Shown here one piece after another: positions 23,189-41,571 of a DNA stretch of 64,000 nt. Source of the DNA: an uncultured bacterium (GTDB lineage Bacteria > CAIWAD01); assembly GCA_903910645.1 (NCBI GenBank), contig CAIWAD010000124.1, positions 16,445 through 80,444 on the forward strand. Direction: 5' to 3'. Every line of letters starts with the position of its first letter. Position 1 is the first letter of the stretch. A program made the position numbers and the translations under genes. The notes under the pieces were generated by a model. It was given only the letters and a program-made list of their open reading frames with translations, searched no databases and was not told where the DNA came from.

Positions 23189-24133
23189 TCAGGGAATGTC
23201 GAAGCGGATGATGCGGCTGGCGCGGCTGTCCACCACCCACCACGAAGCTCCGCAACACACAATGGCCGTGGGACCCTGGAGTTGCCAGGGCTTGCCCTTC
23301 AGCATCAACTGGCCCTGGCTCTGGGCGTACTCGTCATAGGCGTGCACCATGCCCAGGTAGCTGTCGGTGATGAGCAGGCCCTTGCCGTTCCAGCAGGCGC
23401 AGGCGCCCTTGGGACGATAGAGACGCTCGCCATCGGTGCCAAAAGAGCCCACCATGCGGTCAAAGTTCCCCAAGCGCGTGTAGGCCTGGATGCGGCCGCC
23501 CAGCACATCAATCACCATGAAGCCGTTCATGTGGCGGGACAGGATGCCCGGAAACTTGAACTCCTCCACGCGATCGCCCGGCTTGCCGTCGGGCAGGCTC
23601 ATGCCCGCCATGCGACGCATGGGGCGGATCTCGTCGGCGCCCCGGCCAATCACTTTCAACAGGGCGCCGTCGTAGCTGATCATCAGCAGGCGATGGTTGT
23701 CGTTGTCGGAGACCACCAGCTTGTCCTCCAGCGCCAGCACATCCACCGGATCGCAATTGGCCGGAAGCTTGATGGTCTGCACGGGACGCCCGTCCAGGGT
23801 GGTGACGAAAATGGAGCCGGCATCCGGATCGCTCACATAAAGGCGGTCCTTCCAGATATCGTTGCCCACCGGGTTCACAAAACCATCGTGGCGGATTTCA
23901 CGCATCAGGGCGCCCTGGGGGCTGATGACCACCACGCGCTTGTTCAGGCCGTCCACCACATAGGCGTTGCCGCGCTCGTCGGCCGCCAGGTCCGTGGGAT
24001 AAGTGGTGCCGGCGGCCACATCCTCCAGAATGCGCACATCCACCGCGCCGGCCACGCCGGCCAGCATCAGAAGCAGGATCGGGAGGAGCAGGGCTCTCCG
24101 ATCAGTACGCGGGCGGCAGGAAGAAGACTTCAT
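23189..24133 (-). CDS. NHL-repeat beta-propeller protein, secreted
   Basis: Signal peptide ...RRALLLPILLLMLAGVAGA. Repeats: PTDLAADERGNAYVVDGLNKRVVVI, NPVGNDIWKDRLYVSDPDAGSIFV and VLALEDKLVVSDNDNHRLLMI. Confidence 0.8.
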   Translation of the reverse strand: MKSSSCRPRTDRRALLLPILLLMLAGVAGAVDVRILEDVAAGTTYPTDLAADERGNAYVVDGLNKRVVVISPQGALMREIRHDGFVNPVGNDIWKDRLYVSDPDAGSIFVTTLDGRPVQTIKLPANCDPVDVLALEDKLVVSDNDNHRLLMISYDGALLKVIGRGADEIRPMRRMAGMSLPDGKPGDRVEEFKFPGILSRHMNGFMVIDVLGGRIQAYTRLGNFDRMVGSFGTDGERLYRPKGACACWNGKGLLITDSYLGMVHAYDEYAQSQGQLMLKGKPWQLQGPTAIVCCGASWWVVDSRASRIIRFDIP

Positions 24134-26681
24134 TGTCGGTCACACTCGCGGTTATGGCGCTGCTGCGCAGTTGGCGAATCCGCTCCTCGTCGAAGCCCAC
24201 GCCGTGGAAGTCCACCAGCCCACCCTCGGGCACATGGCATTCTCCACAGGTGGCGCCCGTGCCTTCGCCGGACTGGATGCGATCGTGGAAGCGGTCCTTG
24301 GTGTCCTTCATGCGTGCCTGGGTCATGGGCGCGGAATTCTGCCGGTACTCCTCGGCACGAGGGCTGTCCAGATCGGCATAAAGCGGCTTTCCGCCCACCT
24401 TCAAGCCCAGCAGGCTGGTGTAATTGTCCAGCCCGGTGAAGGGCGGTGTGCCGGTCAACTTATAGGGAGCCTTGGGCTCGCCCTGGGGCTGGCGGCGGAG
24501 ATCCAGCCAGCTCCACTCCGCGCCCTTGCGGTCGGCCTCCTTGGCGTGGCAGGTCTCGCAGGTCATGAAGCGGCTGTGCAGGTTCAAGTAGGCCCGCGTC
24601 TTGCGGTCGTTCTGGTGCGGCAACATGGCGTGGCAGAGCAGGCACTCGCTTTGGCGCAGGGTGGAATCCGCCGTCACCACCGGCTCGGCATCGTGGAAGC
24701 GTCTGTGGCGCCAATCCACATCCTCGTTGGCGACACGCAAGGGATAACTGGGATCCGCCAGCGCCGCCTCCTTGTCCGCCAGCGGGCGCTTGCACCACTG
24801 GGCCACCACATCGGCGGCGGCCGGAGCCTTGTCCACTCCCAGGTAGAGGCGGAAGGACCACACCATGGCGGCGCAGGTGACAATGGTGAGAAACAGAAAG
24901 GACCATCCCAGGGTGCGGGCCAGGGTGTCGCGCGTGCTGCGGCGACGCTCCCGGGCCCCGGTGACCTCGTTCACCAGGATGGGGCCGAACTTCTCCACGG
25001 CATCCGGCTCCATGAGCGCGCCGTGCTCCTCCTCCATGTCCTCTTCGCCCATTTTGCCGTCAATCCACACCTCGCTCATGGGCCAGCGGCTGGGCTTCCA
25101 GTGCACGTTCCAGAAATGCCACACCACGATGGCCGCCACGGCAAGGATGGCCTCCAGCGAATGCACCAGGCGGGCCAGGTCCACGATGAACTTGCTGCCC
25201 AGGTGCTCCATCCACAGGATGATGCCCGTTCCTGTCATCACCACGGAGCCCCAGGCGAAGGCCCAGTACTCCATTTTCTCGCCATAGTTGAAGAAGCCGA
25301 AGGCCGGGCGATCCTTCCGCAGGCCCAACATGAAGCTGATGTTGTGGCTGATGAGCTTCATGTCCGATGGGCCGGGGAGCATGGCCCACATCAGGGCCCT
25401 GCCGCGCTTGCTGAACACCGCATAGCCCAGGTGGTAGAAACTCACCAGCGTGAGCAGGATGGCCGCCACGCGATGGCTCCAGTCACGCACGGGCATGAAG
25501 TATTCCCACCGCACAAGGGTGCCGAAGCGCTCCGGCGGAATCCACAGCATGACGCCTGTCAGAGCCAGCAGGGTGAAGCTGGTGAACATGACCACATGAC
25601 TGATGCGCTCCGCTGGGCTCAGGCGGCGGAAGACACGACGCACGGCGCCTTCGGGCTTTTGGTGGTGGGCCGCTGCGTGCGCCTTTCGATGGCGACGCCA
25701 GGCGATGTAGTCCAGCAGATTGTGGCCCAGCATGCCGCCAATGGTGAGCAGGATGATCCAGATGTAAATGCGCTTCACCCACACCAGGGCCTGCACCTTG
25801 GTGCCCTGGTAAAGGTTGTGCATGCTGCCGGCGGTGGCGAAAGACACCGTGGCGCCATCGTGGCAACCGGTTGTGCTGCAGGTTTTCTGCAGGTTCGCCG
25901 GGTTGATCATGGACTTGGAATCCTGATGGCTCAGGATGTTGTGGTGGCCATGGCAGTCGGCGCACACGGGGCTGCGCTTGTCCCCGAAGTTGAAGCCGCG
26001 GCCATGGAAGGACTCCAGGAAGCTGGAGACCATGGTGCCATCGATGAGCAAGGTTTCAAGGCTGTCGGACACCAGCTCGTTGTCCGTGTGGCAGCGGATG
26101 CAGGCCTCGAAGTTCTGCTGATGCCTCCAGTACTCGTCCTCGCTGATGTGCAGGGCCAGGTGCTTGAAGTCCTCGTCCAGGGCGTTGTAGTTCTCGTGGC
26201 AGGTGAGGCACTTGGCCTTGGCGCGCTCCATGTCCTCCGGAAGCTTCTGCCAGTAGACGCTGTTGAAGTGGCAGTCCTTGCACACCGGCTTGCGGTGGTC
26301 GTAGGGGCCCTTCCCCGTCTTGCCATGCACGCTGGCCGCCAGGTCCCTGGCCATTTTCTGATGGGAGTAATCGGCGCCGGTGTAGGGATCGATTACATGG
26401 CAGGCCACGCTGCAGTCCACCTTTTTCACCGGCGCGCGGTGGGGCACCTGATCGATGTCCGTGTGGCACTGGCGGCAGGCGAAGCGGCCATGGATGCTGC
26501 TTTTATGGACGCCTTCGTCGATGGTGAAATTGCGCACGCCCGCGCTGTCGCTGACGGCCATCCAGGGCTTGCCATGGCAGAAGAGGCAATTCTCGGGATC
26601 GAAGGTGCTGTCCTGGGCCACGGCCAGTGTGGCCAGCAGCAGTCCCGCCAGGGCAAGGATCTTCCGCAGGGGATCCATCAT
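24102..26681 (-). CDS. Fused inner-membrane redox protein: N-terminal multihaem c domain, FdnI/PhsC-like cytochrome b domain, TM segment and C-terminal trihaem c domain
   Basis: I chose the ATG at 26681 (MMDPLRKILALAGLLLATLAVA; ATGA overlap). N-domain: CLFCH, CRQCH, CSVACH, CKDCH, CLTCH, CIRCH, CADCH, CSTTGCH. b-domain: RISHVVMFTSFTLLALTG...WSHRVAAILL...EYWAFAWGSVVMTGTG...HSLEAILAVAAIVVWHFWNVH. C-domain: CLLCH, CETCH, CGECH. Confidence 0.85.
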   Translation of the reverse strand: MMDPLRKILALAGLLLATLAVAQDSTFDPENCLFCHGKPWMAVSDSAGVRNFTIDEGVHKSSIHGRFACRQCHTDIDQVPHRAPVKKVDCSVACHVIDPYTGADYSHQKMARDLAASVHGKTGKGPYDHRKPVCKDCHFNSVYWQKLPEDMERAKAKCLTCHENYNALDEDFKHLALHISEDEYWRHQQNFEACIRCHTDNELVSDSLETLLIDGTMVSSFLESFHGRGFNFGDKRSPVCADCHGHHNILSHQDSKSMINPANLQKTCSTTGCHDGATVSFATAGSMHNLYQGTKVQALVWVKRIYIWIILLTIGGMLGHNLLDYIAWRRHRKAHAAAHHQKPEGAVRRVFRRLSPAERISHVVMFTSFTLLALTGVMLWIPPERFGTLVRWEYFMPVRDWSHRVAAILLTLVSFYHLGYAVFSKRGRALMWAMLPGPSDMKLISHNISFMLGLRKDRPAFGFFNYGEKMEYWAFAWGSVVMTGTGIILWMEHLGSKFIVDLARLVHSLEAILAVAAIVVWHFWNVHWKPSRWPMSEVWIDGKMGEEDMEEEHGALMEPDAVEKFGPILVNEVTGARERRRSTRDTLARTLGWSFLFLTIVTCAAMVWSFRLYLGVDKAPAAADVVAQWCKRPLADKEAALADPSYPLRVANEDVDWRHRRFHDAEPVVTADSTLRQSECLLCHAMLPHQNDRKTRAYLNLHSRFMTCETCHAKEADRKGAEWSWLDLRRQPQGEPKAPYKLTGTPPFTGLDNYTSLLGLKVGGKPLYADLDSPRAEEYRQNSAPMTQARMKDTKDRFHDRIQSGEGTGATCGECHVPEGGLVDFHGVGFDEERIRQLRSSAITASVTDNEVFFLPPAY

Positions 26682-27481
26682 TCCTCCAGCATGGGGAAGT
26701 GGAAGGGTTCGTAATTCTCCACCATGCCCACGGCGGCGGAGTGCGTCAATTCGTGGATGCGCGGTTGGCTGAAGCCCAGCGCGACCCATGGGAAAGCGGC
26801 TTCCGGCGTGTGGCAGGCCAGGCAGGCGCTGGGCGTTTTGCCCACATGCTCCTCGGCGAACTCGCGGAACTGGGCCTCGTCGATCTCCAGCCCGCTCAGC
26901 GCGTCGGCGCGGAACTGCTTGTAGCGCTGGTCATCGTAGGGCGTGAACAGCAGGGTGTTGCCGCCTGCCGCCGTGAGCACAGGGACGATGCGGCTGATGA
27001 AGTTGTGCCGCCCGGACAGGACGCCATCCTTCCCCCGCTCAAGTCCATAGGGGCCCAGGGCCGTGACCGTGTTGTCCGTGTCGAAGGAGGTCCACTCCAG
27101 CGAGGTGCGCGCGCGCATGGTGTCGTCCAGATGGCAGGCCAGACAGCTCATGAAATGGCTGTGCTGGTTGTAGAAGGCACGGCGCTTGGGATCCTTGGTG
27201 TGCGGGAAAAGCGGGTGGCATGTCAGGCAGGCCTCCTGCTGGCCCAGGGGCAGCAGGCTGTGCACCTCGATGTTGTGGAAGTGCTGCTCCTGGTTGCGGT
27301 AGTCCTCGAACCAGGTCTCCAGCTGCTCCACATGGTCCGTGAAGTGGCGCCTTCCCTGCTTTTCCTCCTCGTGGGCCTTGTGGGGACGGTTGGTCATCCA
27401 CACCAGCCAGGCGGACACAGCGCTGCCGATGACCAGGGCCGTAAGGCCGTAGGCCACCCGGCTGAAGGTTCTCATGCTCAT
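26678..27481 (-). CDS. Membrane-anchored trihaem cytochrome c, homologous to the C-terminal domain of the 24102-26681 product
   Basis: N-terminal TM segment VAYGLTALVIGSAVSAWLVW. Motifs CLTCHPLFPHTKD, CLACHLDD and CLACHTPE align with CLLCHAMLPHQND, CETCHAKE and CGECHVPE. Confidence 0.85.
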   Translation of the reverse strand: MSMRTFSRVAYGLTALVIGSAVSAWLVWMTNRPHKAHEEEKQGRRHFTDHVEQLETWFEDYRNQEQHFHNIEVHSLLPLGQQEACLTCHPLFPHTKDPKRRAFYNQHSHFMSCLACHLDDTMRARTSLEWTSFDTDNTVTALGPYGLERGKDGVLSGRHNFISRIVPVLTAAGGNTLLFTPYDDQRYKQFRADALSGLEIDEAQFREFAEEHVGKTPSACLACHTPEAAFPWVALGFSQPRIHELTHSAAVGMVENYEPFHFPMLEE

Positions 27482-28263
27482 GCGTCACCATCCCGGCCGG
27501 CGGCGCCGTCCTGCTTGTCGTCGTCGTCGTGGCGTCGCACACGGCCACGCTTCAACTGCTCAAGGATGTCCTCCAGCTCGCGGGGATGCTCGTGCATCAT
27601 CTCCTCTTCGCTAAGGGTGCCGCGGTACCACACCTTGTTGGCGGGCCACACGCGGGGATTGAAGTGCACGTTGTAGAAGTGCCAGATGACAATGGCCAGG
27701 AAGGCCAGCAGGGCCTCGTCACTGTGGGCCACATAGGCGATCTGGATGACCTCTGAGGGGAACCACTGGCCGCTGGCCTCCGGATACCACAGCAACAGGC
27801 CGCTGCCCGCCATGATGAACATGCCCCAGAACACCGCCCAGTAGTCGAATTTTTCGATGTAGGAGAAGCGGTGGAAGCGGGGACGCTCCTCACTCAGGAA
27901 AAGGAAGTAGCGGATGTTCGTGGCAATGTCCCGGGCATCCTGCAGGTTCGGCAGCAGATGCATGCCGGAAAGGGGCGTGCGGTTGCGCACGATGTTGAAG
28001 AACACATAGAACACATGGACGGCGAAATCGGCGATCATCACCACCGCGGCCACGCGATGAATGGTGCGCACCGTGTCGATGCCCCCGAAAAGGTTGATGG
28101 AGTGCGACCAGAAGGCGGTGTCCGGGAACTTGATGGGGAAGCCCGTCACCACCAGGACAATGAATGGCACAAACATGAAGATGTGCTGCAGGCGCTGGCT
28201 GAGCGAGAAACGCACATACTCCCGCCTTCCCCCCACCACGCGAATGCGATCACTCACTCTCAT
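27478..28263 (-). CDS. Cytochrome b subunit (FdnI / Ni-Fe hydrogenase b-type / PhsC-like)
   Basis: I chose the ATG at 28263 (MRVSDRIRVV...). RLQHIFMFVPFIVLVVTG, TIHRVAAVVMIADFAVHVFYV, DYWAVFWGMFIMAGSG and HSDEALLAFLAIVIWHFYNVHFNP. The ATGA overlap is with the downstream gene. Confidence 0.85.
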   Translation of the reverse strand: MRVSDRIRVVGGRREYVRFSLSQRLQHIFMFVPFIVLVVTGFPIKFPDTAFWSHSINLFGGIDTVRTIHRVAAVVMIADFAVHVFYVFFNIVRNRTPLSGMHLLPNLQDARDIATNIRYFLFLSEERPRFHRFSYIEKFDYWAVFWGMFIMAGSGLLLWYPEASGQWFPSEVIQIAYVAHSDEALLAFLAIVIWHFYNVHFNPRVWPANKVWYRGTLSEEEMMHEHPRELEDILEQLKRGRVRRHDDDDKQDGAAGRDGDA

Positions 28264-29296
28264 GGCGGCCTCCTCCCGAGAAGCGCCCGTGGACCCAGCG
28301 GCCGAAGTCCAGCAGGATGTGGCTGAAGAGCAGGGCCATGGTGATGGCCGTGAGCAGGATGAAGCCCCAGGTGACCACATAGACCACCGGATTGCTCTCC
28401 ATGGTGGGCTTGCTGTGGATGGCCGAGCGCGCGAACTCAATGCTGGGGCTGATGTGGCAGCCCGTGGTGCCGCAGGTCTGGCGGATGTTCGCCGTGGACA
28501 GCGTGGAGGCCGGGTCGTCCTGGGGCAGCACAAGATGACTGGTGTGGCAATCCGCGCAGTTGGCCACGCCATCCAGGCCGCGCCGCATGGCCTTGCCATG
28601 GAAGTGGTGCTGGAAGCCTTCCACCTGCGTGCTGCTCACATTCACGCTCTCCATCAGCGTGGCGTCGCCGTGACAGCTTGAGCACAAGCGCACGATGTCC
28701 AGCGAGTTCTCCGCGCTGCGGTGGGAAGTGTGGCGGTCAATGTGCTGGATGACGCCTTCCAGGGACTTGCCGTCGTGGCAGTTGGCGCAGTGCTTGGCCT
28801 GCTCCTGCACGCGCTGGTCCGGGGCCGCCATGCGATGGCTGCCGTGGCAGTACTTGCAGCCGGGCTTGGCGGCGTTGGTTTCGGGATCGTCCTTGGGATT
28901 CTGCCCGTGCACGCTCATGGCGTGGGCTTCCACTTCGCCGCGGTGGGAGAACACCGTCAGCTCGAAGGGGCGGTTCACATGGCAGGTCTTGCCGCAGTCC
29001 ACCTTCTGCACCACCTGTGGATGCGGAAACGCATCGATGTCCGCGTGGCAGTCCCGGCAGCCGATGCCCTTGTGGGAGCTGTGCATCACGGTCTCGGCGC
29101 TCACCTCGTAGAGGCGGAAACGGCCCTTGTCGTCGTGGCGCGACAACAGGGGCAGCCCATGGCAGAGTTCGCAGTTCTCCGAATCCGCCAGACGCGGATT
29201 GGCCAGCGAAGACGCCAGCGGCAGCAAGGCGAGAAGGGCCGGGAGCAGGCCCCTGGCCAGAGAGGCCAAGGCGCCCCTACAGGTCGTGACAGGCAT
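28250..29296 (-). CDS. Multihaem cytochrome c with a C-terminal membrane anchor (6 CxxCH, one CX3CH, one CX4CH)
   Basis: Signal peptide ...LLPALLALLPLASSLA. Motifs: CELCH, CRDCH, CGKTCH, CKYCH, CANCH, CSSCH, CADCH, CGTTGCH. C-terminal TM segment VVYVVTWGFILLTAITMALLF. Confidence 0.9.
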   Translation of the reverse strand: MPVTTCRGALASLARGLLPALLALLPLASSLANPRLADSENCELCHGLPLLSRHDDKGRFRLYEVSAETVMHSSHKGIGCRDCHADIDAFPHPQVVQKVDCGKTCHVNRPFELTVFSHRGEVEAHAMSVHGQNPKDDPETNAAKPGCKYCHGSHRMAAPDQRVQEQAKHCANCHDGKSLEGVIQHIDRHTSHRSAENSLDIVRLCSSCHGDATLMESVNVSSTQVEGFQHHFHGKAMRRGLDGVANCADCHTSHLVLPQDDPASTLSTANIRQTCGTTGCHISPSIEFARSAIHSKPTMESNPVVYVVTWGFILLTAITMALLFSHILLDFGRWVHGRFSGGGRHESE

Positions 29297-30215
29297 AGCA
29301 GATCCGCTCTTTTGCCGCCCGCAGGAGCTTGGAGGCGGGGGCGCCTCCGCCCGAGCAGGCGGGATTTGGGCTGTGACAGGTGGCGCAGGCCACCGTTCCC
29401 CCGGGTCCCAGGGGCAGGATCACGCCGCTCTGGGCCTGGAACCGTTCCAGCGCGGCGGCGGTGTTCATCTTCAATCTGTTGTGCAGCACGGAGCGTCCCA
29501 CATGCTCCCGCTCATGCTTCACATCCTTGTGGCACTTCAGGCACAGTTCGCCCTGGGGCAGCTGAAGGCCCTTGCCGGGCTGGGCCGCATCGCCGCCCTC
29601 CGCGCTGTGGCAGTACCAGCAGGCCTTGTTGTCCTCGGACTGGCCGTGGGGATAGGTCTGCTTGTAGAGTTCGCGCGTGTGGCACTGGTAGCAGAAGTCC
29701 GTCTCCCGGGGCCATGGTCCGCCACGCAGCATGCTGCGGTTCTCCCGCGCCACGCGATAGCTGGTGGTCTCGTCGCAGTTGATGGCGTGGCAGGTCAGGC
29801 AAGTGCCACGGCCTTCCTTCAGGCGCGCATTGGCCGGACTGGGCGCCTTGGAGCTTGCCCCGGAGAAATCCGTGGGATGGATTTCACGCAAATGGGCCTG
29901 GGGGTCGTGGCATTCCACACAAGCGCCGTCCCGCCAGTTGGCCGCCGCCGGAGTCTGCCCGGGCGTGTGGCATTGGTCGCAACGGTTGGGCCGGCCGTGG
30001 GGGTTGTCCTTGCCAGGCAGAGTCAGGTGCTGCTTCTGGGCGGGCCTGGGTGCCGGGGCCGCCGCACGCGCGGGCACGGGTGGCTTGCACAAGCCACAGG
30101 ACGGTTTGGCGCAGTCATCATGGGTGGCCGGGGCAGGAGCCGCTCCCAGCTGGGCACCAAGCAGCAGCGCCAGCAAACCGACAACCCAGGAACCTGACCA
30201 CGAGCGTTGAACCAT
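29277..30215 (-). CDS. Periplasmic octahaem cytochrome c
   Basis: I chose the ATG at 30215 (MVQRSWSGSWVVGLLALLLGAQLGAA). Motifs: CDQCH, CVECH, CLTCH, CYQCH, CWYCH, CLKCH, CATCH, CYACH. Confidence 0.9.
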   Translation of the reverse strand: MVQRSWSGSWVVGLLALLLGAQLGAAPAPATHDDCAKPSCGLCKPPVPARAAAPAPRPAQKQHLTLPGKDNPHGRPNRCDQCHTPGQTPAAANWRDGACVECHDPQAHLREIHPTDFSGASSKAPSPANARLKEGRGTCLTCHAINCDETTSYRVARENRSMLRGGPWPRETDFCYQCHTRELYKQTYPHGQSEDNKACWYCHSAEGGDAAQPGKGLQLPQGELCLKCHKDVKHEREHVGRSVLHNRLKMNTAAALERFQAQSGVILPLGPGGTVACATCHSPNPACSGGGAPASKLLRAAKERICYACHDL

Positions 30216-30222
30216 CACGCCA

Positions 30223-31410
30223 TCACTCCAGCGGATAGGATAGGCCTTGCTCCTCCCAGCGATTGGGAAGGGGCAGGTCGTCATGGATGAGCGCATTGGC
30301 GCCGAAGCGCAGGCTGAGCAGGTCGTAGCCCAGCACATTGAGGTAGAAACCCACGAAGGCGCTGGTCTGGCCCGTCCAGCAGTAGAGGACATTGGTGTTG
30401 GCCGGATGCAGGGCGCTCAGGTCCTGATTGGTGGTCAGGCTGCCCGGGCTAAGCTGATAGGCGCCCTGGACATGGCCGTACGTGAAGTAGTCGTCCTGCA
30501 GCCAGTAGTTGTGGATGATGAAGGAGCCGGGGTTGTCCATGACCTCGTAGGCGTTCACAGCGTTGGCCGTGAAGCCCTCCGCCAACACCGCCGACACCCG
30601 CGCCTGCAGAATGGCCTGCCCCGAGGCCAGTCCCGTGGACAGCTCGGGCCAGTCGAAGGTGGGAAGGGCGGGACTGTTGCCGTAGCTCATCACCGATTCG
30701 TATGCGTTGCTGATGCCTGCATTCCAGGGCCCTGCCAGCAGGTCGTTCCACCCCGCCATGCCCCATTGCAGACTGAAGGCGTCGTGGCCCAACATGCGCA
30801 ATGCCATGGTGGCGAAGGCCGCCACCTGTCCCGTGTCACAAGCCAGCAGCACCGGCAGGCCGCCACTGTTCTGCCCTTCCACCGTGGACACCAGCGTGGT
30901 AAGGCTGGCATTGCGAGCGCCGGGAATGTGCCCTGCCAGGAAGGCCTGGCTGCTGCGGAGATCCACCACGAAGTACTGGCCCAGATTGGCGTTCACCGTG
31001 GTGGCAGGCAGGATCCAGTTGGTGGCCCAGGTGGCGAACTGGGCGTCCGTGATGGCCGCCAGGCGGTTGAATTCCCCGCGCACGGAGATGGAGGTGGAAC
31101 GGCTGGCGCTGTCCACGCCATCGCTGACCTCCACCAGGATCGTCACCTGCCCGGAAGCCGGTGCCTGCCACTGGATGTTGGCCGTGCTGCCAATGGCCAG
31201 ACCATCAACTGTCCAGGCATAGGTCAAGGCGTCGCCATCGGCGTCGCTGGCCGTGCAGGCAAGAGTGATGGTCTCGCCGGGATCGGGGGTGGGATCGCTG
31301 GCGGTGACACCGCTGATGACAGGCGGGCTGTTGCCCTCCTCAGAAGAGGAACAGCCACCCAAAATGAGGGCGGCCATCAGGCCCGTGACGAAAATGCGTG
31401 CGCGACCCAT
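30223..31410 (-). CDS. Lipoprotein with a PKD/Ig-like domain and tandem rhodanese domains
   Basis: Lipobox LMAALILGGCSSSEEG. PKD-like segment ITLACTASDADGDALTYAWTV. Rhodanese motifs: LAGHIPGARNA, the loop CDTGQV, YGHVQGAYQL and the loop CWTGQTS. Confidence 0.8.
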   Translation of the reverse strand: MGRARIFVTGLMAALILGGCSSSEEGNSPPVISGVTASDPTPDPGETITLACTASDADGDALTYAWTVDGLAIGSTANIQWQAPASGQVTILVEVSDGVDSASRSTSISVRGEFNRLAAITDAQFATWATNWILPATTVNANLGQYFVVDLRSSQAFLAGHIPGARNASLTTLVSTVEGQNSGGLPVLLACDTGQVAAFATMALRMLGHDAFSLQWGMAGWNDLLAGPWNAGISNAYESVMSYGNSPALPTFDWPELSTGLASGQAILQARVSAVLAEGFTANAVNAYEVMDNPGSFIIHNYWLQDDYFTYGHVQGAYQLSPGSLTTNQDLSALHPANTNVLYCWTGQTSAFVGFYLNVLGYDLLSLRFGANALIHDDLPLPNRWEEQGLSYPLE

Positions 31411-31471: not shown

Positions 31472-32431
31472 TTAGTTGGTTTCCAGCTCGTAGTTGAAGC
31501 CGGTGGCGGCCCAGGCGTTGGCCGGCATGGTGTCGTGGTACAGCGCGTTGGCGCCGTACTTCAGGCTAAGCACATCATAGCCCAGGGCGTTCAGGTAGAA
31601 ACCCACCAGGGCGCTGGTCTGGCCCGTGTAGCAGTAGAGCACCTGCTGGTCGGCGGGATCCAGGGCGTCCAGGTCCGTGGTGGTGGTCAGGTTGCCCGGA
31701 GTCAGCTGGTAGGCGCCGTCGATGTGGCCAACGGCGTAGTGGGCGGCGCTCCAGTAGTTGAAGATCTGGTAGTCACCCGGAGTGGCCATTACGGTGGCTG
31801 CGGTGACGATGTTGGGCGTCAGGCCTTCAGCCAGGATGGCGTTCACGCGGGCCTCCAGGATGGCCTGGCCATCGGTGAGGCCGGTGTTCAGTGCAGGGAA
31901 CTCGAAGGTGCCCAGGGCGGGGCTGGCGCTGGTGACCATGTTGCCCACATAGGCGTTGCTGATGCCCGTGGCCCAGCTGGTGTTCAAGGCGTCATTCCAA
32001 CCGCCCATGCCCCACTTCACGGAGAAGGCGTCCGTCCAGCCCAGCATGCGCAGAGCCATGGTGGCGAAGGCCGAAGTCTGGCCCGTGTAGCACACCACCG
32101 CCACCGGCAGGTCGCTGGTGTTGTTGGTGGCGATGTTGTCGGCCATGGTGGTCAGCGTGGCGTTGTGGGCGCCGGGGATGTGGCCGGCAGCGTAGTCCGT
32201 GGCGCTGCGCAGGTCCACCACATAAAGGTTGGCCAGGTTGGTGTGGACATAGTCCGCGCCCTGCACCCAGCCCGTGGTCCAGCCGGCGAAGCCCGTGTCC
32301 GTGAGCTCGCTCATGAGGGCGAACTCGTCCACCGGTGTGGTATTGTCGTCGTCGTCATCCTCGGAGCAGCCGGTGAAGACGGAAAGGGTGAGCGCCACGG
32401 ACAAAGCCAAGGCGAGCTTCTGGAACTTCAT
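31472..32431 (-). CDS. Lipoprotein with tandem rhodanese domains, both with a CYTGQTS active-site loop
   Basis: I chose the ATG at 32431, preceded by a GGAG. Lipobox LTLSVFTGCSEDDDDDNTT. Motifs: AAGHIPGAHNA, VVCYTGQTSAFATMALRMLGW and LYCYTGQTSALVGFYLNALGY. Confidence 0.85.
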   Translation of the reverse strand: MKFQKLALALSVALTLSVFTGCSEDDDDDNTTPVDEFALMSELTDTGFAGWTTGWVQGADYVHTNLANLYVVDLRSATDYAAGHIPGAHNATLTTMADNIATNNTSDLPVAVVCYTGQTSAFATMALRMLGWTDAFSVKWGMGGWNDALNTSWATGISNAYVGNMVTSASPALGTFEFPALNTGLTDGQAILEARVNAILAEGLTPNIVTAATVMATPGDYQIFNYWSAAHYAVGHIDGAYQLTPGNLTTTTDLDALDPADQQVLYCYTGQTSALVGFYLNALGYDVLSLKYGANALYHDTMPANAWAATGFNYELETN

Positions 32432-32531
32432 GCGAACTCCTGTGTTTTGGAAAGTTGGGTCCATTGACCCATTGGTGACGCGCCCGTGGCCGCCGACCCT
32501 CCCAAGCCCGCGGCCCGACCCGTTTCAACCA

Positions 32532-33860
32532 TCAATGTCTGTTCCAATACCTCGTGATGCTGTCGTCCACTGCAGTGGCCCGGTTGGCCCGCACATACTC
32601 GTCGGGGTCCTCCAGACCCGTGACGGACGACTTCAAACTGTCCAGATGGCTCAGCCACAGGAAGCGCCTGGCGTTGGCCTCCTCGTGCGGGCCCTGGACA
32701 TGGCAGCTCATCCAGCAGTCTCCCATGCTGTAGGCAGGGTTGGACAGCGCCACGGCCGTCTGGGGCGTGAAGCGCTGGATGTTGTGGGGACTGGAGTACT
32801 CCCAGGTGGGGAAGGAGGACCAGTTCTGCAGACTGGGCCAGCCCCACTCGCGAAAGCCATCCTTGATCACCGGGATGTGGCGCACGGTGACCCACTCCTC
32901 ATGCTCCACCGGATGGGTGGAAATTGCGCCTGTGTTGCGACCAATGCGGAAGTCAGTGTACTCAGAATACCCCTCGGGGTCTCCACTGTTCCACACGCCG
33001 CCGGAGTGGCAATTCAGGCAGTTGGTGTAGGGCTGGCTGTGGCACACGGTGCAGGACAGGCCCTCTTCCATGGAGCCTTCCCCCGGCCAGTGATAGGCGT
33101 GGAAAAGGTTGTCCTCCGCCGCCAGGCTGTGGCAGTTGGTGCAGCGCGGCATGCCTTCCACTTCATAACGGCTGGTGTAGTCCGTGCGGCCGTCCCCGTG
33201 CAGATTCTCCTGGTGGCAGAAGAAACAGTCGAAGCCCAGCTCATTGTGCACATCGGGGCGATTGCCCTCGTGGTGGCCGTTGTAGTCGTTGCCCACGCGG
33301 CTGCCATGGCAGGCGGTGCAGTTGTTTTCAATGTCAGGCGTGCGCTTGAAGCGATGGCTGTCCAGCAGGCCGCCCTTCACACTGGTGGGACGGGACACAT
33401 GGCATTGGCCGCAGGTGGCGTGGCAGCTGGAACATTCCCGCGCATGGCCTTCCTTGAGCAGCTCGGGACAATCCTCCCAGCTTTCGTAGCCGGCGCGCAG
33501 GGCGATCTTCGCCTTTTCGCCCCACAGCTGGCTGTGCATGGACGTGGCATGCAGGTCCACGATCTGGGCATGGCAACCCGTGCCGTTGCAATTCAGCTCC
33601 GGCTGGGTGCTGGGATCCCGCGTGATGCCCTTCACCGTGGGCTTTTCACGAATGACGCGCCCGTTGCTGGTGTAGCGCACCTCGAACTGGTGGGCCGCCG
33701 CCATGGCCACCCACAAATCATCCCGCGAGCCACTGGCCGCCACCACCTGATCCACGCCGCCGTGGCAGGTGACACATCCCACAGCCGCATGGTTGGGGTC
33801 AACTTCGGCGTAGCTGTCGGCGTCGATGAACACTTTTGCATAAGGCTCCAACGGAGCCAC
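32532..33860 (-). CDS. Multihaem cytochrome c body (8 CxxCH plus CX4CH and CX3CH variants) with no signal peptide of its own
   Basis: Motifs: CVTCH, CNGTGCH, CSSCH, CGQCH, CTACH, CFFCH, CTNCH, CTVCH, CLNCH, CWMSCH. The N-terminus (GTG start) V/MAPLEPYAKVFIDADSYAEVD is acidic and not signal-like. The gene is in the same frame as 33870-34094. Confidence 0.8.
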   Translation of the reverse strand: MAPLEPYAKVFIDADSYAEVDPNHAAVGCVTCHGGVDQVVAASGSRDDLWVAMAAAHQFEVRYTSNGRVIREKPTVKGITRDPSTQPELNCNGTGCHAQIVDLHATSMHSQLWGEKAKIALRAGYESWEDCPELLKEGHARECSSCHATCGQCHVSRPTSVKGGLLDSHRFKRTPDIENNCTACHGSRVGNDYNGHHEGNRPDVHNELGFDCFFCHQENLHGDGRTDYTSRYEVEGMPRCTNCHSLAAEDNLFHAYHWPGEGSMEEGLSCTVCHSQPYTNCLNCHSGGVWNSGDPEGYSEYTDFRIGRNTGAISTHPVEHEEWVTVRHIPVIKDGFREWGWPSLQNWSSFPTWEYSSPHNIQRFTPQTAVALSNPAYSMGDCWMSCHVQGPHEEANARRFLWLSHLDSLKSSVTGLEDPDEYVRANRATAVDDSITRYWNRH

Positions 33861-33869
33861 GGCGCCGCC

Positions 33870-34094
33870 TCAGCCACCACCCGCGCTTTCACTGGCCGCC
33901 TCTTCCACCGCCAACAGACGCAGATAGTCCCGGTTGGTGTGGCAGCTCTCGCAGCTAAGGGTCACCGCGTCGCCCGACGAGGCGGGATCCGCGGTGATGG
34001 GGTCGATGCGTTCGCACCCCTGCTGCAAGGCGGCAAAGAGGCTCCCCCACAACAGAAGGCGCCACCATGCCTGTGAAAATGCGCTTGTCGTCAT
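33870..34094 (-). CDS. Short signal-peptide/lipoprotein-like ORF with one CxxCH; probably the N-terminus of the 32532-33860 cytochrome, interrupted by an in-frame TGA
   Basis: MTTSAFSQAWWRLLLWGSLFAALQQGC...LSCESCH...ESAGGG, then TGA at 33872-33870. It is in frame (234 nt, or 78 codons, between the two starts) with the next ORF. Confidence 0.55.
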   Translation of the reverse strand: MTTSAFSQAWWRLLLWGSLFAALQQGCERIDPITADPASSGDAVTLSCESCHTNRDYLRLLAVEEAASESAGGG

Positions 34095-37574: not shown

Positions 37575-38198
37575 TCAGCGACTGCCTTCCAACTCCAGCA
37601 GCGCCTGCTTTCGCGGCAGACCTCCGGCATAGCCCACCAGTGTCCCCGAGGCGCCCACAACCCGATGGCAGGGCACCACCAGGGCCACGCGATTGCGCCC
37701 GTTGGCGCCGGCCACGGCCCGGGAAGCGGTGGGTTGGCCCACCTTGTCCGCCAGTTGGGCGTAACTGATGGTGGTCCCCAGGGGAATACGGCGCAGCTCC
37801 GCCCACACCTTCTCCTCAAAAGGCGTGCCGGGAAGGCAGAGGGGCACGGAAAAGCCCTTTCCCTGGCCGGCGAAGTAGGAAGCCAGCTCCTTCTCCAATT
37901 GGGCGATCAACGGGTGGGTGGAGGCCTGGAAAGCGGCATCCATGCGGCGCACAAGCGTGGCCAGCTGGCCTTCCAGGTTGTGGCGTCCATGGAACTCCAG
38001 GAGACAGACGCCCTGGTCCACGGCGCCCGCCAGAAGCGGTCCCATGGGACTGGACAGGCAGCACAAGTGGATTGTGGTGGCAGGTGAGGCGGGAGCGGAA
38101 ATGGCCTCCACAGTGGCCTGGAAGGGGCCAAGGGCGCGGAAGTCCGCGCGGAATTGGTTTGCCAAGGGGATCCTCCTTTGCCCGTAGGGACACGACAT
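37575..38198 (-). CDS. ogt: Methylated-DNA--protein-cysteine methyltransferase (Ogt/MGMT)
   Basis: IPLGTTISYAQLA...RAVAGANGRNRVALVVPCHRVVGASG contains the PCHR active site. The N-terminus is uncertain because the listed ATG sits at the centre of a 28-bp palindrome. Confidence 0.85.
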   Translation of the reverse strand: MSCPYGQRRIPLANQFRADFRALGPFQATVEAISAPASPATTIHLCCLSSPMGPLLAGAVDQGVCLLEFHGRHNLEGQLATLVRRMDAAFQASTHPLIAQLEKELASYFAGQGKGFSVPLCLPGTPFEEKVWAELRRIPLGTTISYAQLADKVGQPTASRAVAGANGRNRVALVVPCHRVVGASGTLVGYAGGLPRKQALLELEGSR

Positions 38199-38211
38199 GT
38201 CGTGTCCCTAC
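38184..38211. repeat. Perfect 28-bp palindrome GTAGGGACACGACA|TGTCGTGTCCCTAC at the icmF-stop/ogt-start junction
   Basis: Read directly: the reverse complement of 38184-38197 equals 38198-38211. It spans the icmF TAG (38208-38210) and the listed ogt ATG (38196-38198). Confidence 0.9.
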
Positions 38212-41200
38212 ATGTTGCGCCGATACTGCCCGCCCACCTCGAAGAGCGCCCGCGTGATCTGCCCCAGGCTGGCCACCCGCACAGTCTCCATCAGTTCCGC
38301 GAAAAGGTTGCCCCCCTCCGCCGCCACGCATCGCAAGCGCGCCAGCGCCTCCGGTGTCTGCGCGGCATGCCGCGCCTGGAAGTCGCGCAGGCGGGTCACC
38401 TGCAGCTGCTTCTCCTCGTCCGTGGCCCGGGCCAGCTCCAGGTGTTCGGGCACATCCGATCCCCCCGGACGCAGGAAGCTGTTCACGCCCATGATGGGCA
38501 GCTCGCCGGACTGCTTCTTCAGCTCGTAGAGCATGGACTCTTCCTGGATGCGGCCGCGCTGGTACTGCGTCTCCATGGCGCCCAGCACGCCGCCGCGCTC
38601 GCTCAGGCGCACGAACTCCGCCAGCACCGCCTCCTCCACCAGCTCCGTCAACTCGTCCATGATGAACGAGCCCTGCAGGGGGTTCTCATTCTTCGTCACG
38701 CCGAATTCGTGGCTCACGATGAGCTGGATGGCCAGGGCACGGCGCACGCTCTCTTCCGTGGGCGTGGTCACCGCTTCGTCGTAGGCGTTGGTGTGCAGGC
38801 TGTTGCAGTTGTCGTAGATGGCCAGCAGGGCCTGCAGTGTGGTGCGGATGTCGTTGAAGTCCATCTCCTGGGCGTGCAGGCTGCGACCGCTGGTCTGGAT
38901 GTGGTACTTCAGCTTCTGGCTGCGCTCGTCCCCATGGTACAGGTCGCGCATGGCCACCGCCCAGATGCGTCGGGCCACGCGCCCGATGACGCTGTACTCC
39001 GGATCCAGCCCATTGCTGAAGAAGAAGGAGAGGTTGGGCGCGAAGTCGTCAATGCGCATGCCCCGGCTCAGGTAGTACTCCACATAAGTGAAGCCGTTGG
39101 CCAGGGTGAAGGCCAGCTGCGAGATGGGGTTGGCCCCCGCCTCGGCGATGTGGTAGCCGCTGATGGACACGCTGTAGTAGTTGCGCACGCGGTTGGAAAT
39201 GAACCACTCCTGGATGTCGCCCATGAGCTTCAGCGCGAACTCCGTGGAGAAGATGCAGGTGTTCTGCGCCTGGTCCTCCTTCAGGATGTCCGCCTGCACC
39301 GTGCCGCGCACGGCGGAGAGCGTGGTCGCGCGCAGCTCCCCCGCCTCCACGGCACTGGGATCGCGGCCCTCCCGCTGGCGGAACGCATCCAGGGCGAAGT
39401 CCACCGCCGTGTTCAGGTACATGGCCAGAATCATGGGGGCCGGCCCGTTGATGGTCATGCTCACGCTGGTGGTAGGGCTGCTCAGATCAAAGCCGTCATA
39501 GAGCCGCTTCATGTCGTCCAGGGTGCAGATGCTCACGCCGCTCTCGCCCACCTTTCCGAAGATGTCCGGGCGCTCCTCCGGGTCCTCGCCGTAGAGGGTC
39601 ACGCTGTCGAAAGCGGTGGAGAGCCGTTTGGCCGCGCTGTCCCTGGACAGGTAGTGGAAGCGGCGGTTGGTGCGCTCCGGCGGTCCCTCGCCGGCGAACT
39701 GCCGCGTGGGGTCCTCGCCCTGGCGCTTGAAGGGGAAGACCCCGGCCGTGTAGGGGAAGAATCCCGGCAGGTTCTCCAGCGCCACGAAGCGGTAGAGATC
39801 CCCCACATCCCCAAAGCGCGGCAGAGCCACCCGTGGAATGGCCGACCCGGACAGGCTGGTGCGCGTCAGCTCCTGACGATGCACCTGGCCGCGCACCGTG
39901 TATTCGTAGAACTCGCCCGTGTAACAGGCCGCCGTGGCCTGATAGGCCTCCAGCGCGGACAGGGCCCCCGCATGCAGGGCCAGGGCCAACTCCCGCCGCT
40001 TCGCCTCCAGGAGATCCGCCGCCTCGCACGGGCCCAATTCAGACACCGCGGTGGCCAGGTGGGCGCAACGGCTCAGGCGGTCGGCATCCTGGCGCACGCG
40101 GGTCTTGTAGTCTCGCACGGTGCGTGAGATTTCCGCCAGGTAACCCACGCGGTCTTCCGGTATCAACTGCCGGCGCAGCACGCGGTTGTCCGCGGCCAGC
40201 GGCGTGGTGGCGAAACCGCCGCCGAAGCGCGCCTCCAGCGCCTGCATGAAGCGGTCGAAGAACCAGTTGGTACCGTTGCAGTCGAAGCGGCTGGCCACCG
40301 TGCCGAACACGGGCAGCTCCTCGTCGGGCACATCCCAGGAGATGCCGCGGGCCCGGCGCACTTGCCGCCGCACATCGCGCAGGGCGTCCTCGCTGCCGCG
40401 CTTCTCGTACTTGTTGAGCACCACCATGTCGGCATAGTCCAGCATGTCGATCTTCTCGAGTTGGCTGGCCGCGCCATACTCGGCGGTCATGGCGTAGATG
40501 CTGAAGTCCGCCAGGTCCACCACCGCGCTGCTGCCCTGACCGATGCCGCTGGTCTCCAGCAGGATGAGGTCGAAGCCCGCCACCTTCAGCAGGGCCACGC
40601 TGTCCGCCGTGGCGGCGCTGAGCTCGCTGCCGCTCTGCCGGGTGGCCAGACTGCGCAGGAAGACCTTCTCGCCGCTCAGGCTGTTCACGCGGATGCGGTC
40701 ACCCAACAGGGCGCCGCCGCTCTTGCGCTTGGTGGGATCCACACTCACCACCGCCGCGCTCTTGCCCGGATGCACCGCCTGGAAGCGGCGCAGGATCTCA
40801 TCGGTCAGGCTACTCTTGCCGGCGCCCCCCGTCCCCGTGATGCCCACCACCGGGGCTCCGCCGGCGCGGCCCATTTCCAGCAACTCGTGCAGCGCCGCTG
40901 GGGCCTGGGCTCCGGCGGCCTTGCGCTCGCACCAGGTAAGGGCGCGACCCAGCGCCATTTCTTGGCGGGCCAGCACACCGGCCTTCAAATCGTCCAGGGG
41001 AAGCTGGGAAGGATCGAAGTCGCTGGCGTTCAAAGCCAGCTGAATCATGCCCTCCAGGCCCAGCTCCGCACCGTCCTGGGGGCTGAAGATGCGATCGATG
41101 CCCGCGGCGTGCAGCTCCTCGATCTCATCCCGCACAATCACGCCGCCGCCGCCGCCAAAGATCTTCACATGGCCCGCGCCTCGCTCAGCCAACAGCTCCT

Positions 41201-41444
41201 TCATGTACTTGAAGAAGCGCACATGGCCGCCCTGGTAGCTGGAGACGGCCACGGCCTGGGCGTCCTCCTGCACGGCGGCGCGCACAATGTCCAGCACGCT
41301 GCGATTGTGGCCCAGGTGGATCACCTCCGCCCCGGCGGCCTGGAAGACCCGACGCATGATGTTGATGGCGGCGTCGTGGCCGTCGTAGAGGCTGGCGGCG
41401 GTGACCACGCGGACGGGATGTTGCAGGCGGTGTTCCTGGGCCAT
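38208..41444 (-). CDS. icmF: Fused isobutyryl-CoA mutase IcmF (B12-binding domain, MeaB-like GTPase and mutase catalytic domain)
   Basis: I chose the ATG at 41444 (MAQEHRLQHPVRVVTAASLYDGHDAAINIM, containing the DxHxxG-type B12 motif). P-loop GITGTGGAGKSSL. Large C-terminal mutase domain (FPYTAGVFPFKR, SISGYHIAEAGA). Confidence 0.9.
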   Translation of the reverse strand: MAQEHRLQHPVRVVTAASLYDGHDAAINIMRRVFQAAGAEVIHLGHNRSVLDIVRAAVQEDAQAVAVSSYQGGHVRFFKYMKELLAERGAGHVKIFGGGGGVIVRDEIEELHAAGIDRIFSPQDGAELGLEGMIQLALNASDFDPSQLPLDDLKAGVLARQEMALGRALTWCERKAAGAQAPAALHELLEMGRAGGAPVVGITGTGGAGKSSLTDEILRRFQAVHPGKSAAVVSVDPTKRKSGGALLGDRIRVNSLSGEKVFLRSLATRQSGSELSAATADSVALLKVAGFDLILLETSGIGQGSSAVVDLADFSIYAMTAEYGAASQLEKIDMLDYADMVVLNKYEKRGSEDALRDVRRQVRRARGISWDVPDEELPVFGTVASRFDCNGTNWFFDRFMQALEARFGGGFATTPLAADNRVLRRQLIPEDRVGYLAEISRTVRDYKTRVRQDADRLSRCAHLATAVSELGPCEAADLLEAKRRELALALHAGALSALEAYQATAACYTGEFYEYTVRGQVHRQELTRTSLSGSAIPRVALPRFGDVGDLYRFVALENLPGFFPYTAGVFPFKRQGEDPTRQFAGEGPPERTNRRFHYLSRDSAAKRLSTAFDSVTLYGEDPEERPDIFGKVGESGVSICTLDDMKRLYDGFDLSSPTTSVSMTINGPAPMILAMYLNTAVDFALDAFRQREGRDPSAVEAGELRATTLSAVRGTVQADILKEDQAQNTCIFSTEFALKLMGDIQEWFISNRVRNYYSVSISGYHIAEAGANPISQLAFTLANGFTYVEYYLSRGMRIDDFAPNLSFFFSNGLDPEYSVIGRVARRIWAVAMRDLYHGDERSQKLKYHIQTSGRSLHAQEMDFNDIRTTLQALLAIYDNCNSLHTNAYDEAVTTPTEESVRRALAIQLIVSHEFGVTKNENPLQGSFIMDELTELVEEAVLAEFVRLSERGGVLGAMETQYQRGRIQEESMLYELKKQSGELPIMGVNSFLRPGGSDVPEHLELARATDEEKQLQVTRLRDFQARHAAQTPEALARLRCVAAEGGNLFAELMETVRVASLGQITRALFEVGGQYRRNM

Positions 41445-41571
41445 GGATGATCTCACGCTTGGTTGAACGACCGGTGAATCTACCACTGCCACCGGCAAGT
41501 GGACCCACAAGTGGAAGGGGCCACCGCGGCGGCCCCTTCCAAAGATGCAGGCATCGTCAACGCCGCTCGAG

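Follow-up and report, generated by a model that had tools for sequence, protein, structure and literature searches.

Two reading frames separated by a single in-frame TGA

The window analysed here is a 64,000-nt stretch of DNA from an uncultured bacterium (GenBank assembly GCA_903910645.1, contig CAIWAD010000124.1, positions 16,445 to 80,444), and on its minus strand, at 34094-32532, two annotated open reading frames (ORFs) lie on either side of an in-frame TGA; together they would encode a single multihaem cytochrome c containing selenocysteine (Sec). The upstream ORF (34094-33873, 74 aa, beginning MTTSAFSQAWWRLLLWGSLFAALQQGC...) has a signal or lipoprotein N-terminus that ends in LQQGC, and a single haem motif, CESCH. 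The downstream ORF (33860-32532, 442 aa) starts with GTG, lacks a signal peptide and contains eight CxxCH motifs, one CX4CH (C169-H175) and one CX3CH (C460-H465, in the numbering of the fused protein), which brings the fused protein, N-terminal CESCH included, to 11 haem motifs. Between the two, the TGA at 33872-33870 is followed by three codons, GGC GGC GCC, and then by the GTG at 33860. Reading through the TGA gives ...ESAGGG-U-GGAVAPLEPYAKVFIDAD..., or over a longer stretch ...ESAGGG-U-GGAVAPLEPYAKVFI..., and the predicted peptide spanning residue 75 is LLAVEEAASESAGGG-U-GGAVAPLEPYAK.

The initial annotation had described much of this: two TGA-separated ORFs whose starts are 234 nt apart and which therefore share one frame, a short first ORF with an export signal and one CxxCH, a signal-less second ORF with eight or more haem motifs, and a perfect 6-bp stem 11 nt after the TGA. 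Our reading of the minus strand agrees on every feature; the haem motifs of the second ORF number ten, and the stem has a predicted dG of -10.3 kcal/mol.

No other pair of coding-like ORFs joined by an in-frame TGA was found on the true coding strand within the 64-kb window. TGA is the commonest ordinary stop there, ending 27 of the 43 predicted genes, and the earlier exclusion of a genome-wide reassignment of UGA is upheld by this count. Both halves of the split gene have coding-type composition, and a contig from an independent metagenome (JGI), 99% identical, carries the same 74-aa and 442-aa split with the same neighbours (P0001 among the homologues described below). An exact database look-up of the 442-aa protein of the window returned no identical record. 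The lipobox of the window protein, LQQGC, is atypical, homologues having the canonical L-x-[GAS]-C; its Cys27 is kept in 72 of 81 sequences, and C48, C51 and H52 of the first haem motif in 79 of 81.

Conservation of the TGA and of the hairpin behind it

A homologue search with the fused sequence against 5.8 billion proteins yielded 1,324 homologues, forming 307 clusters at 50% identity with E <= 1e-3, or 89 with E <= 1e-30. The best 120 are mostly ~440 aa long, and their coverage is confined to the part of the query past the TGA, 85% of it. Because most database homologues begin right after this codon, the split is the rule in the family, and homologues that start just past a codon are what is usually seen when gene callers split a selenoprotein gene. 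Opposite the TGA, the few homologues of full length carry Cys, within G-C-G-G (identifiers in Table 1).

We then fetched the DNA of 80 species-representative loci (L001-L080) and read the codon at the aligned position, an alignment that the initial annotation had proposed. The codon is TGA in 54 loci, TGC in 13 and TGT in 8, specifies neither Sec nor Cys in 5, and is never TAA or TAG; Cys is thus found in 21 of the 26 non-TGA loci. The TGA loci span at least eight phylum-level lineages, including Neomarinimicrobiota, Calditrichota, Eisenbacteria, KSB1, Krumholzibacteriia, metagenome-assembled genomes (MAGs) labelled Fibrobacterota, Thermodesulfobacteriota (among them a Desulfuromonadaceae MAG), and the Delongbacteria/Acetofilamentum relatives nearest to the window. 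In every TGA locus the region 5' of the codon encodes, in frame, a signal peptide, its lipobox usually canonical, and the first CxxCH. Cys forms make up a single clade of Bacteroidota, Ignavibacteriota and Kapabacteria. From a neighbour-joining tree with parsimony reconstruction, which returned Sec as the ancestral state with five changes, we infer that Sec is probably ancestral in the family. Around residue 75, the glycines G74, G76 and G77 are nearly invariant.

These data bear on whether the TGA is simply a nonsense change in an ordinary cytochrome gene, or a sequencing or assembly error. One window alone cannot separate a nonsense codon from a Sec-UGA, and in this window the hairpin is non-significant by itself and no Sec machinery is encoded. 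However, 54 of 80 species, drawn from many phyla, have TGA at this codon, the 99% identical contig from the independent metagenome has the same split, and both halves combine coding-type composition with invariant haem motifs. Real decay also looks otherwise. Locus L011 carries a decayed, partial N-terminal duplicate (L011:2515-2562), ~900 nt upstream of its intact gene and reading ...ACDPGHETIDLSDPSTCEG, NTSESTLK, YAPGSAIESTGGG and GGEVVPLEPLGKVF..., each segment separated from the next by a stop; it has TAA in place of the Sec-TGA and several more stops, yet scores 42 bits with the hairpin model introduced below. This duplicate is a picture of true pseudogenisation of the cytochrome gene. 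The initial annotation had kept both error and pseudogene as options; we regard them as excluded by the TGA conservation and the independent contig, and give them a negligible probability.

In the mRNA, 11 nt (GGCGGCGCCGU) stand between the TGA and GGCUCC-GUU-GGAGCC, which forms a 6-bp stem with the 3-nt loop GUU, 17 nt separating the UGA from the loop. The published model of the bacterial Sec insertion sequence (bSECIS) specifies an apical loop of 3-9 nt, an upper stem of 4-16 bp, G in the loop's first two positions, 16-37 nt from UGA to loop and a minimum free energy (MFE) at or below -7.5 kcal/mol (PMC13188914); the window hairpin lies within all of these constraints.

To compare the hairpin across the family, we used ungapped 48-nt alignments beginning at the Sec or Cys codon, one of 55 Sec sequences (the 54 TGA loci and the window) and one of 21 Cys sequences. 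The family helix pairs mRNA positions 13-20 with 24-31, counted from the U of UGA, leaving positions 21-23 as the loop. Paired cells amount to 84.8% in Sec-type genes versus 36.9% in Cys-type genes, and pairs changed on both sides were seen at 7 of 8 positions (51 cells) in the former and at 2 of 8 (4 cells) in the latter. The observed pairing was matched by none of 500 shuffles for Sec-type genes and by at least 325 of 500 for Cys-type genes; in slid-partner controls, 38-51% (Sec-type) and 20-39% (Cys-type) of cells were paired. Mean local MFE was -9.7 kcal/mol in Sec-type versus -2.5 kcal/mol in Cys-type genes (Mann-Whitney p = 3.6e-8), and 71% of the family reached <= -7.5 kcal/mol in a 25-nt local fold. 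A covariance model built from the Sec alignment and run over 886 kb recovered every one of the 55 Sec sites, with scores of 40.8-74 bits (>= 46 bits for 54 sites; 60.8 bits for the window hairpin), with Cys sites at <= 23 bits. Within the loop, G21 and U23 are invariant (55 of 55 Sec sequences for G21), with 43 loops reading GUU, 6 GGU and 6 GCU. In a minority clade of six loci (L027, L058, L044, L059, L060 and L068) the hairpin is shifted by a few nucleotides.

The stem is kept by different peptides, V-A-P-L-E-P, V-V-P-L-E-P, V-E-P-L-A-P and A-V-P-L-V-L. Because the compensatory changes are often non-synonymous (A..E-P, V..E-P, E..A-P, V..V-L), the peptide co-varies with the RNA helix; the Cys-type peptide at the stem position differs, reading E-x-P-H-I-E-P-Y-D-R. 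RNA structure appears, from these alignments, to shape the protein sequence at the stem, and a SECIS lying within a conserved peptide would be a clear case of dual coding constraint.

We put the probability at roughly 0.9 that 34094-32532 is a single, bona fide selenoprotein gene whose UGA is read as Sec. The UGA would be decoded by SelB and Sec-tRNA(Sec), directed by the hairpin 9-11 nt downstream and inside the coding sequence (V-A-P-L-E-P), and selenium would then be incorporated at residue 75. The SECIS interpretation had been offered earlier as a hypothesis; the count of 54 TGA and 21 Cys loci among 80, together with a covarying hairpin specific to the TGA forms, now argues strongly for it.

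Several results count against this reading. Taken alone, the window hairpin is not beyond chance (z = -0.5 versus shuffles, with an 86-nt region folded), in line with the earlier caution that a 6-bp GC hairpin is unremarkable by itself. Its significance comes from the cross-genome comparison only. An Rfam scan of the window at gathering thresholds returned no family. Searches with tblastn using E. coli SelA, SelB and SelD gave no selA, selB or selD match in the window or in any of the 80 loci; no tRNA-Sec was found in the window or the fetched flanks, and ARAGORN found no tRNA in the window. Sec decoding by the source organism is accordingly an assumption, because no Sec machinery lies within the 64-kb window or flanks.

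The assumed machinery is also what lends some room to a selenium-free read-through, in which a near-cognate tRNA would insert Cys, Trp, Arg or Gly and the hairpin would act as a generic stimulator. One locus fits such a view: L023 (L023:5111-5158) has CGG (Arg) at the Sec codon, in GEI-R-GGTVTPLEPWEKV, no adjacent rhodanese gene, and a hairpin that still scores 44.5 bits. Against it, the alternative residue is specifically Cys in 21 of 26 non-TGA loci, the classic Sec/Cys pair, and the hairpin fits SelB-type bSECIS rules in its loop G and 17-nt spacing. The lineages with TGA (Desulfobacterota, Marinimicrobia, Calditrichota) are known Sec users, and the Cys clade is Bacteroidota/Ignavibacteriota. 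Conservation of a TGA across phyla would moreover be implausible if a respiratory enzyme were made by leaky read-through at low yield, and we hold this explanation to be very improbable.

A last possibility is that the callers are right, and that a separately translated ten-haem protein, exported by other means, comes after a small monohaem lipoprotein whose ORF stops at the TGA. Gene callers do annotate two genes, and a GTG stands three codons past the TGA. This GTG is not conserved as a start, however, and lies inside the conserved peptide G-G-x-V-x-P; the downstream ORF lacks a signal peptide in every Sec-type locus, and attachment of c-type haem requires export. In Cys-type and other orthologues the same N-terminal domain belongs to one uninterrupted ORF, which bears out the earlier proposal that the two ORFs form one protein. 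The initial annotation had also set out two patterns that would speak for other outcomes, orthologues that are all uninterrupted and orthologues that are consistently two genes, the second with a signal peptide of its own; the orthologues follow neither. Translation as two genes therefore retains next to no probability.

Gene neighbourhood and the rhodanese partner

The features of the cytochrome gene and the genes that follow it are collected in Table 1.

Table 1. Coordinates of the candidate selenoprotein gene, its parts and its downstream neighbours in the window
Feature	Position	Strand	Evidence and remarks
Predicted 520-aa Sec-containing eleven-haem c-type cytochrome lipoprotein gene	32532..34094	-	two annotated ORFs joined by the putative Sec-UGA; terminal stop included
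Signal peptide ending at Cys27	34014..34094	-	sequence; conserved C27 and N-terminal hydrophobic stretch
Haem motif 1, CESCH, residues 48-52; sole haem motif 5' of the Sec codon	33939..33953	-	sequence and conservation
Putative Sec-UGA codon, residue 75, motif G-U-G-G	33870..33872	-	TGA/Cys alignment; Cys aligned in P0017, P0105, P0109, P0117, P0119
SECIS-like hairpin; 6 perfect bp at 33844-33858 in the window	33842..33860	-	pairing, covariation, covariance model
Rhodanese lipoprotein 1, with a CYTGQTS active-site loop in both of its rhodanese domains	31472..32464	-	PF00581, E 1e-22, two stretches
Rhodanese lipoprotein 2, N-terminal Ig/PKD-like domain	30223..31410	-	PF00581, E 4e-18; weak Big_9/PKD matches
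Periplasmic multihaem cytochrome, probable true start near 30215	29277..30392	-	Paired_CXXCH_1, Cytochrome_C7; 312 aa on the JGI contig
Multihaem cytochrome with C-terminal membrane anchor	28250..29296	-	homologues downstream in 20 loci
Cytochrome b membrane subunit, FdnI/HydC type	27478..28263	-	TIGR01583 and TIGR02125, E ~1e-10, below curated cut-offs; PF01292; 15 loci
Small membrane-anchored NapC/NrfH-like cytochrome c	26678..27481	-	sequence; weak TIGR03153; 7 loci
895-aa fusion of multihaem cytochrome c, cytochrome b and NapC/NirT-like region	24102..26789	-	PF01292, PF14522, PF03264

The true start of rhodanese lipoprotein 1 is probably the Met at 32431, and the protein is called with 319 aa on the JGI contig. 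A same-strand rhodanese gene adjoins the cytochrome gene in 65 of the 73 Sec- or Cys-type loci with room on the contig, comprising all 21 Cys-type and 44 of 52 Sec-type loci; none of the four loci with room that lack both residues has one (Fisher p = 3.7e-4). It lies directly downstream in 64 of the 65 and just upstream in L025. In 15-20 loci, genes for cytochrome b and multihaem proteins follow downstream of the pair, and the cytochrome b at 27478-28263 is likely the quinol-interacting module.

In two distant homologues the cytochrome is naturally fused to a double rhodanese: P0155 (652 aa), which begins exactly past the Sec codon, and P0196 (715 aa). Their rhodanese domains are C-terminal, the first inactive and the second retaining the catalytic Cys.

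Further large multihaem cytochromes are encoded beyond the 895-aa fusion on the same strand, and MtrC/OmcA-like and DmsE-like multihaem cytochromes are abundant in the operon. The fusion itself (24102-26789), with an N-terminal multihaem c part, a central b part of FdnI/HydC type and a C-terminal NapC/NirT-like part, is an unusual quinol-to-periplasm module in a single polypeptide, and the three genes upstream of it (28250-29296, 27478-28263 and 26678-27481) resemble an unfused paralogous set. Two predicted minus-strand proteins, of 781 aa (18137-20482) and 1,238 aa (8162-11878), have no Pfam or NCBIfam match; the former, between two large multihaem cytochromes and with a homologue in L002 only, could be a component of an outer-membrane conduit. 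Also on the minus strand, 38208-41510 encodes an IcmF-type fused mutase of 1,100 aa (B12-binding, MeaB GTPase and methylmalonyl-CoA mutase domains), and 37575-38198 a methylated-DNA-protein-cysteine methyltransferase-like protein with a PCHRVV motif. Both are unrelated to the cytochrome finding and are conserved beside the cytochrome gene on the JGI contig.

Haem complement, comparison with known cytochromes and proposed chemistry

All family members examined have eleven haem motifs and an N-terminal signal. The (near-)invariant His residues outside the motifs are H102, H135, H187, H247, H283, H299, H332, H335 and H437, and since these are nine for eleven haems, at least two haems lack a conserved distal His. 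Residue U/C75 is the only conserved Cys position beyond the haem motifs and lipobox, and no Lys is conserved at >= 85% in the family alignment. C209 was weighed as a resolving Cys for a selenenylsulfide and rejected, being present in no more than 27 of 55 Sec types and found in Sec-less loci as well.

The cytochrome scores below the gathering threshold of every Pfam model. NCBIfam scans covered 77 members (70 plus 7 extra, with 25 of the 29 matched families listed for the 70), and no model reaches its cut-off among the matches listed. ExtM (NF040943) recurs weakly, in 28 of 70 members, at best with 44 bits against a cut-off of 800 and over two short stretches. ExtM is a cytochrome of the Geobacter selenite/tellurite reduction operon, which is of the same operon type as the window locus; the similarity may reflect only shared multihaem motifs. 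Weak recurrent matches were also noted to ExtN, ExtO and ExtS of that operon, and taken together these sequence matches hint at a distant tie of the locus type to the ext cluster beyond ExtKL.

A Foldseek search against the Protein Data Bank (PDB) gave no match. An AlphaFold2 model was made for the Cys-type homologue P0017 and has an OTR-like fold, the closest fold being that of a sulfur-compound reductase. OTR is the octahaem tetrathionate reductase of Shewanella oneidensis (PDB 1sp3, TIGR04315), and some members of its family are annotated in GenBank as selenoproteins (PMC13188914). While the fold is shared in the predicted model, identity is 18%, and OTR, whose catalytic haem is Lys-ligated, has 8 haems, whereas the window family has 11 haem motifs, a lipoprotein signal and a rhodanese partner. 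Membership of TIGR04315 (cut-off 375 bits) was rejected, the model not being among the matches listed for the 77 members, and the GSU2204 family was likewise rejected on profile and PDB searches.

The nearest parallel in organisation is MccSep, that is ExtKL of Geobacter sulfurreducens (GSU2937-2936, NF040886, PDB 9wt8/9wt9; Mihara et al., Sci Adv 2026, PMC13510729). This multihaem Sec enzyme reduces polysulfide and selenite, and its extHIJKLMNOPQS cluster also encodes a rhodanese-like lipoprotein, ExtH (PMC13510729, PMC5877670); found in 2026 to be indispensable to Geobacter for sulfur respiration (PMC13510729), it is the only haem-Sec enzyme characterised. Like the window protein, it is a periplasmic multihaem c-type cytochrome annotated as two ORFs joined by a Sec-UGA, with a SECIS-like hairpin directly 3'. 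Both families have Sec and Cys forms with Sec ancestral, and in both the neighbouring genes encode a rhodanese-like lipoprotein, cytochrome b and multihaem proteins; the Sec of MccSep sits on a mobile Gly-containing loop, Sec75 in a glycine-rich one.

The proteins themselves differ. MccSep has 5 haems and a C-terminal Ig-like domain, whereas the window protein has 11 haem motifs and no Ig-like domain. Sec325 of MccSep lies in D-G-U-P near the C-terminus, in contrast to the N-terminal position of Sec75 in G-U-G-G, and is paired with a conserved haem-ligating Cys239, whereas the window family has no second conserved Cys. MccSep occurs mainly in Desulfobacterota and Nitrospirota, the window family in Marinimicrobia, Calditrichota, Delongbacteria, Eisenbacteria, KSB1, Bacteroidota/Ignavibacteriota and some Desulfobacterota. 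Membership of ExtKL/MccSep was rejected: NF040886 is not among the matches listed for the 77 members, and phmmer and profile searches of a PDB copy containing 9wt8 and 9wt9 found no similarity to the cytochrome family. The likeness of the operons (a rhodanese lipoprotein with quinol-linked cytochromes) is one of organisation, by analogy, and not of cytochrome homology. A non-homologous cytochrome with the logic of MccSep (Sec, multihaem, rhodanese and quinol-linked chain) suggests convergent use of selenium for chemistry at chalcogen-chalcogen bonds.

TsdA, SoxAX and DsrJ are c-type cytochromes in which a single Cys near or on the haem iron carries out thiosulfate, tetrathionate or sulfane chemistry. 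The window family is comparable in that eleven haems and nine conserved distal His leave U/C75 as the sole spare chalcogen residue; no homology was detected, although one member matched SoxA (TIGR04484) at E = 0.045. Haem ligation by U/C75 is a conjecture, and we know of no precedent for a natural His/Sec-ligated haem c.

The product of the window gene would be a lipid-anchored, eleven-haem cytochrome c exported through the Sec translocation pathway, with Sec75 in a glycine-rich G-U-G-G loop after haem motif 1. It would form the catalytic end of an extracytoplasmic electron-transfer chain that includes the cytochrome b and multihaem cytochromes encoded downstream. On its flexible G-rich arm, the selenolate of residue 75 would be the catalytic nucleophile that accepts or attacks a chalcogen: either sulfane sulfur would be passed to Sec75 from a rhodanese persulfide, or Sec75 would attack polysulfide, thiosulfate, tetrathionate or selenite. 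With the rhodanese lipoproteins, the substrate would be sulfane sulfur or a related chalcogen (polysulfide/S0, thiosulfate, tetrathionate, possibly selenite). The quinol pool would supply electrons to the haem chain by way of the cytochrome b and the multihaem proteins, or electrons would flow in reverse if the reaction is oxidative. Respiratory redox conversion of a sulfur or selenium compound, with Sec as nucleophile, is the most likely function.

Some observations weigh against such a role. Eight Sec-type loci, mostly Desulfobacterota, have no adjacent rhodanese gene, and the fusion P0196 apparently has Tyr instead of Sec or Cys at the site; the coupling of Sec and rhodanese is therefore not absolute. 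Because no partner Cys is conserved, a pairing of Sec with a Cys-ligated haem as in MccSep is unsupported by sequence. The Cys region of the P0017 model has low confidence (pLDDT ~50), and the substrate and the direction of electron flow we infer wholly.

These points give some weight to a genuine selenoprotein in which Sec75 takes no catalytic part with the rhodanese, being instead redox-sensing, structural, or an axial haem ligand in an electron-transfer (metal-reducing) cytochrome. The operon's wealth of MtrC/OmcA-like and DmsE-like cytochromes would suit such a protein, as would the Sec-type loci without rhodanese and the poorly modelled Sec loop. Rhodanese is, however, adjacent in 65 of 73 Sec/Cys loci, fused in two homologues and absent from all four loci lacking Sec/Cys, and the fold comes closest to that of a sulfur-compound reductase. 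In known selenoproteins, Sec serves in catalysis (PMC13188914). A non-catalytic Sec75 seems unlikely to us, though by no means negligible, and a catalytic role in chalcogen chemistry is preferred.

A more specific form of the catalytic proposal can be offered only tentatively: the family may possibly represent a second, independently evolved haem-selenium centre, an OTR-like eleven-haem enzyme whose Sec, on an N-terminal arm, would ligate or lie over a haem without distal His and exchange sulfane sulfur or selenium with a dedicated rhodanese, acting as a molybdenum-free respiratory sulfur, polysulfide or thiosulfate reductase or oxidase. If true, this molybdenum-free enzyme would be used by Marinimicrobia, Calditrichota, Delongbacteria, Ignavibacteriota and others. 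The family would be a candidate for selenium-dependent respiration of sulfur compounds in abundant uncultured lineages without obvious molybdoenzyme routes.

In a review of May 2026, the cytochrome-related selenoproteins listed fall into three families, ExtKL (NF040886), the GSU2204 family (NF041027) and the OTR family (TIGR04315) (PMC13188914). None of the three models is among the NCBIfam matches listed for family members, and the selenoprotein catalogue therefore gains a family. Our literature searches on selenocysteine with multihaem proteins, rhodanese or the relevant taxa, whose coverage was incomplete, found no description of it. This is a widespread, rhodanese-partnered selenoprotein family, absent from the selenoprotein lists and models checked. 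The UGA recoding itself is conventional; the family is widespread and probably misannotated throughout.

In the databases, hundreds of entries for this family are truncated, signal-less "hypothetical proteins" or carry the misnomer "thiosulfate sulfurtransferase", and the Sec codon would restore a complete exported enzyme. A protein of Dethiobacter alkaliphilus, DealDRAFT_1917, has 10 haems and no signal peptide, is encoded beside a rhodanese, is up-regulated during thiosulfate respiration and was once misnamed thiosulfate sulfurtransferase (PMC10376724). It resembles the downstream half of a Sec-type member and is a candidate member of the family, although cluster look-ups did not retrieve it. 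Within the family, the JGI name "thiosulfate/3-mercaptopyruvate sulfurtransferase" stands on homologues including P0013, P0059, P0063, P0067, P0094, P0103, P0267 and P0303.

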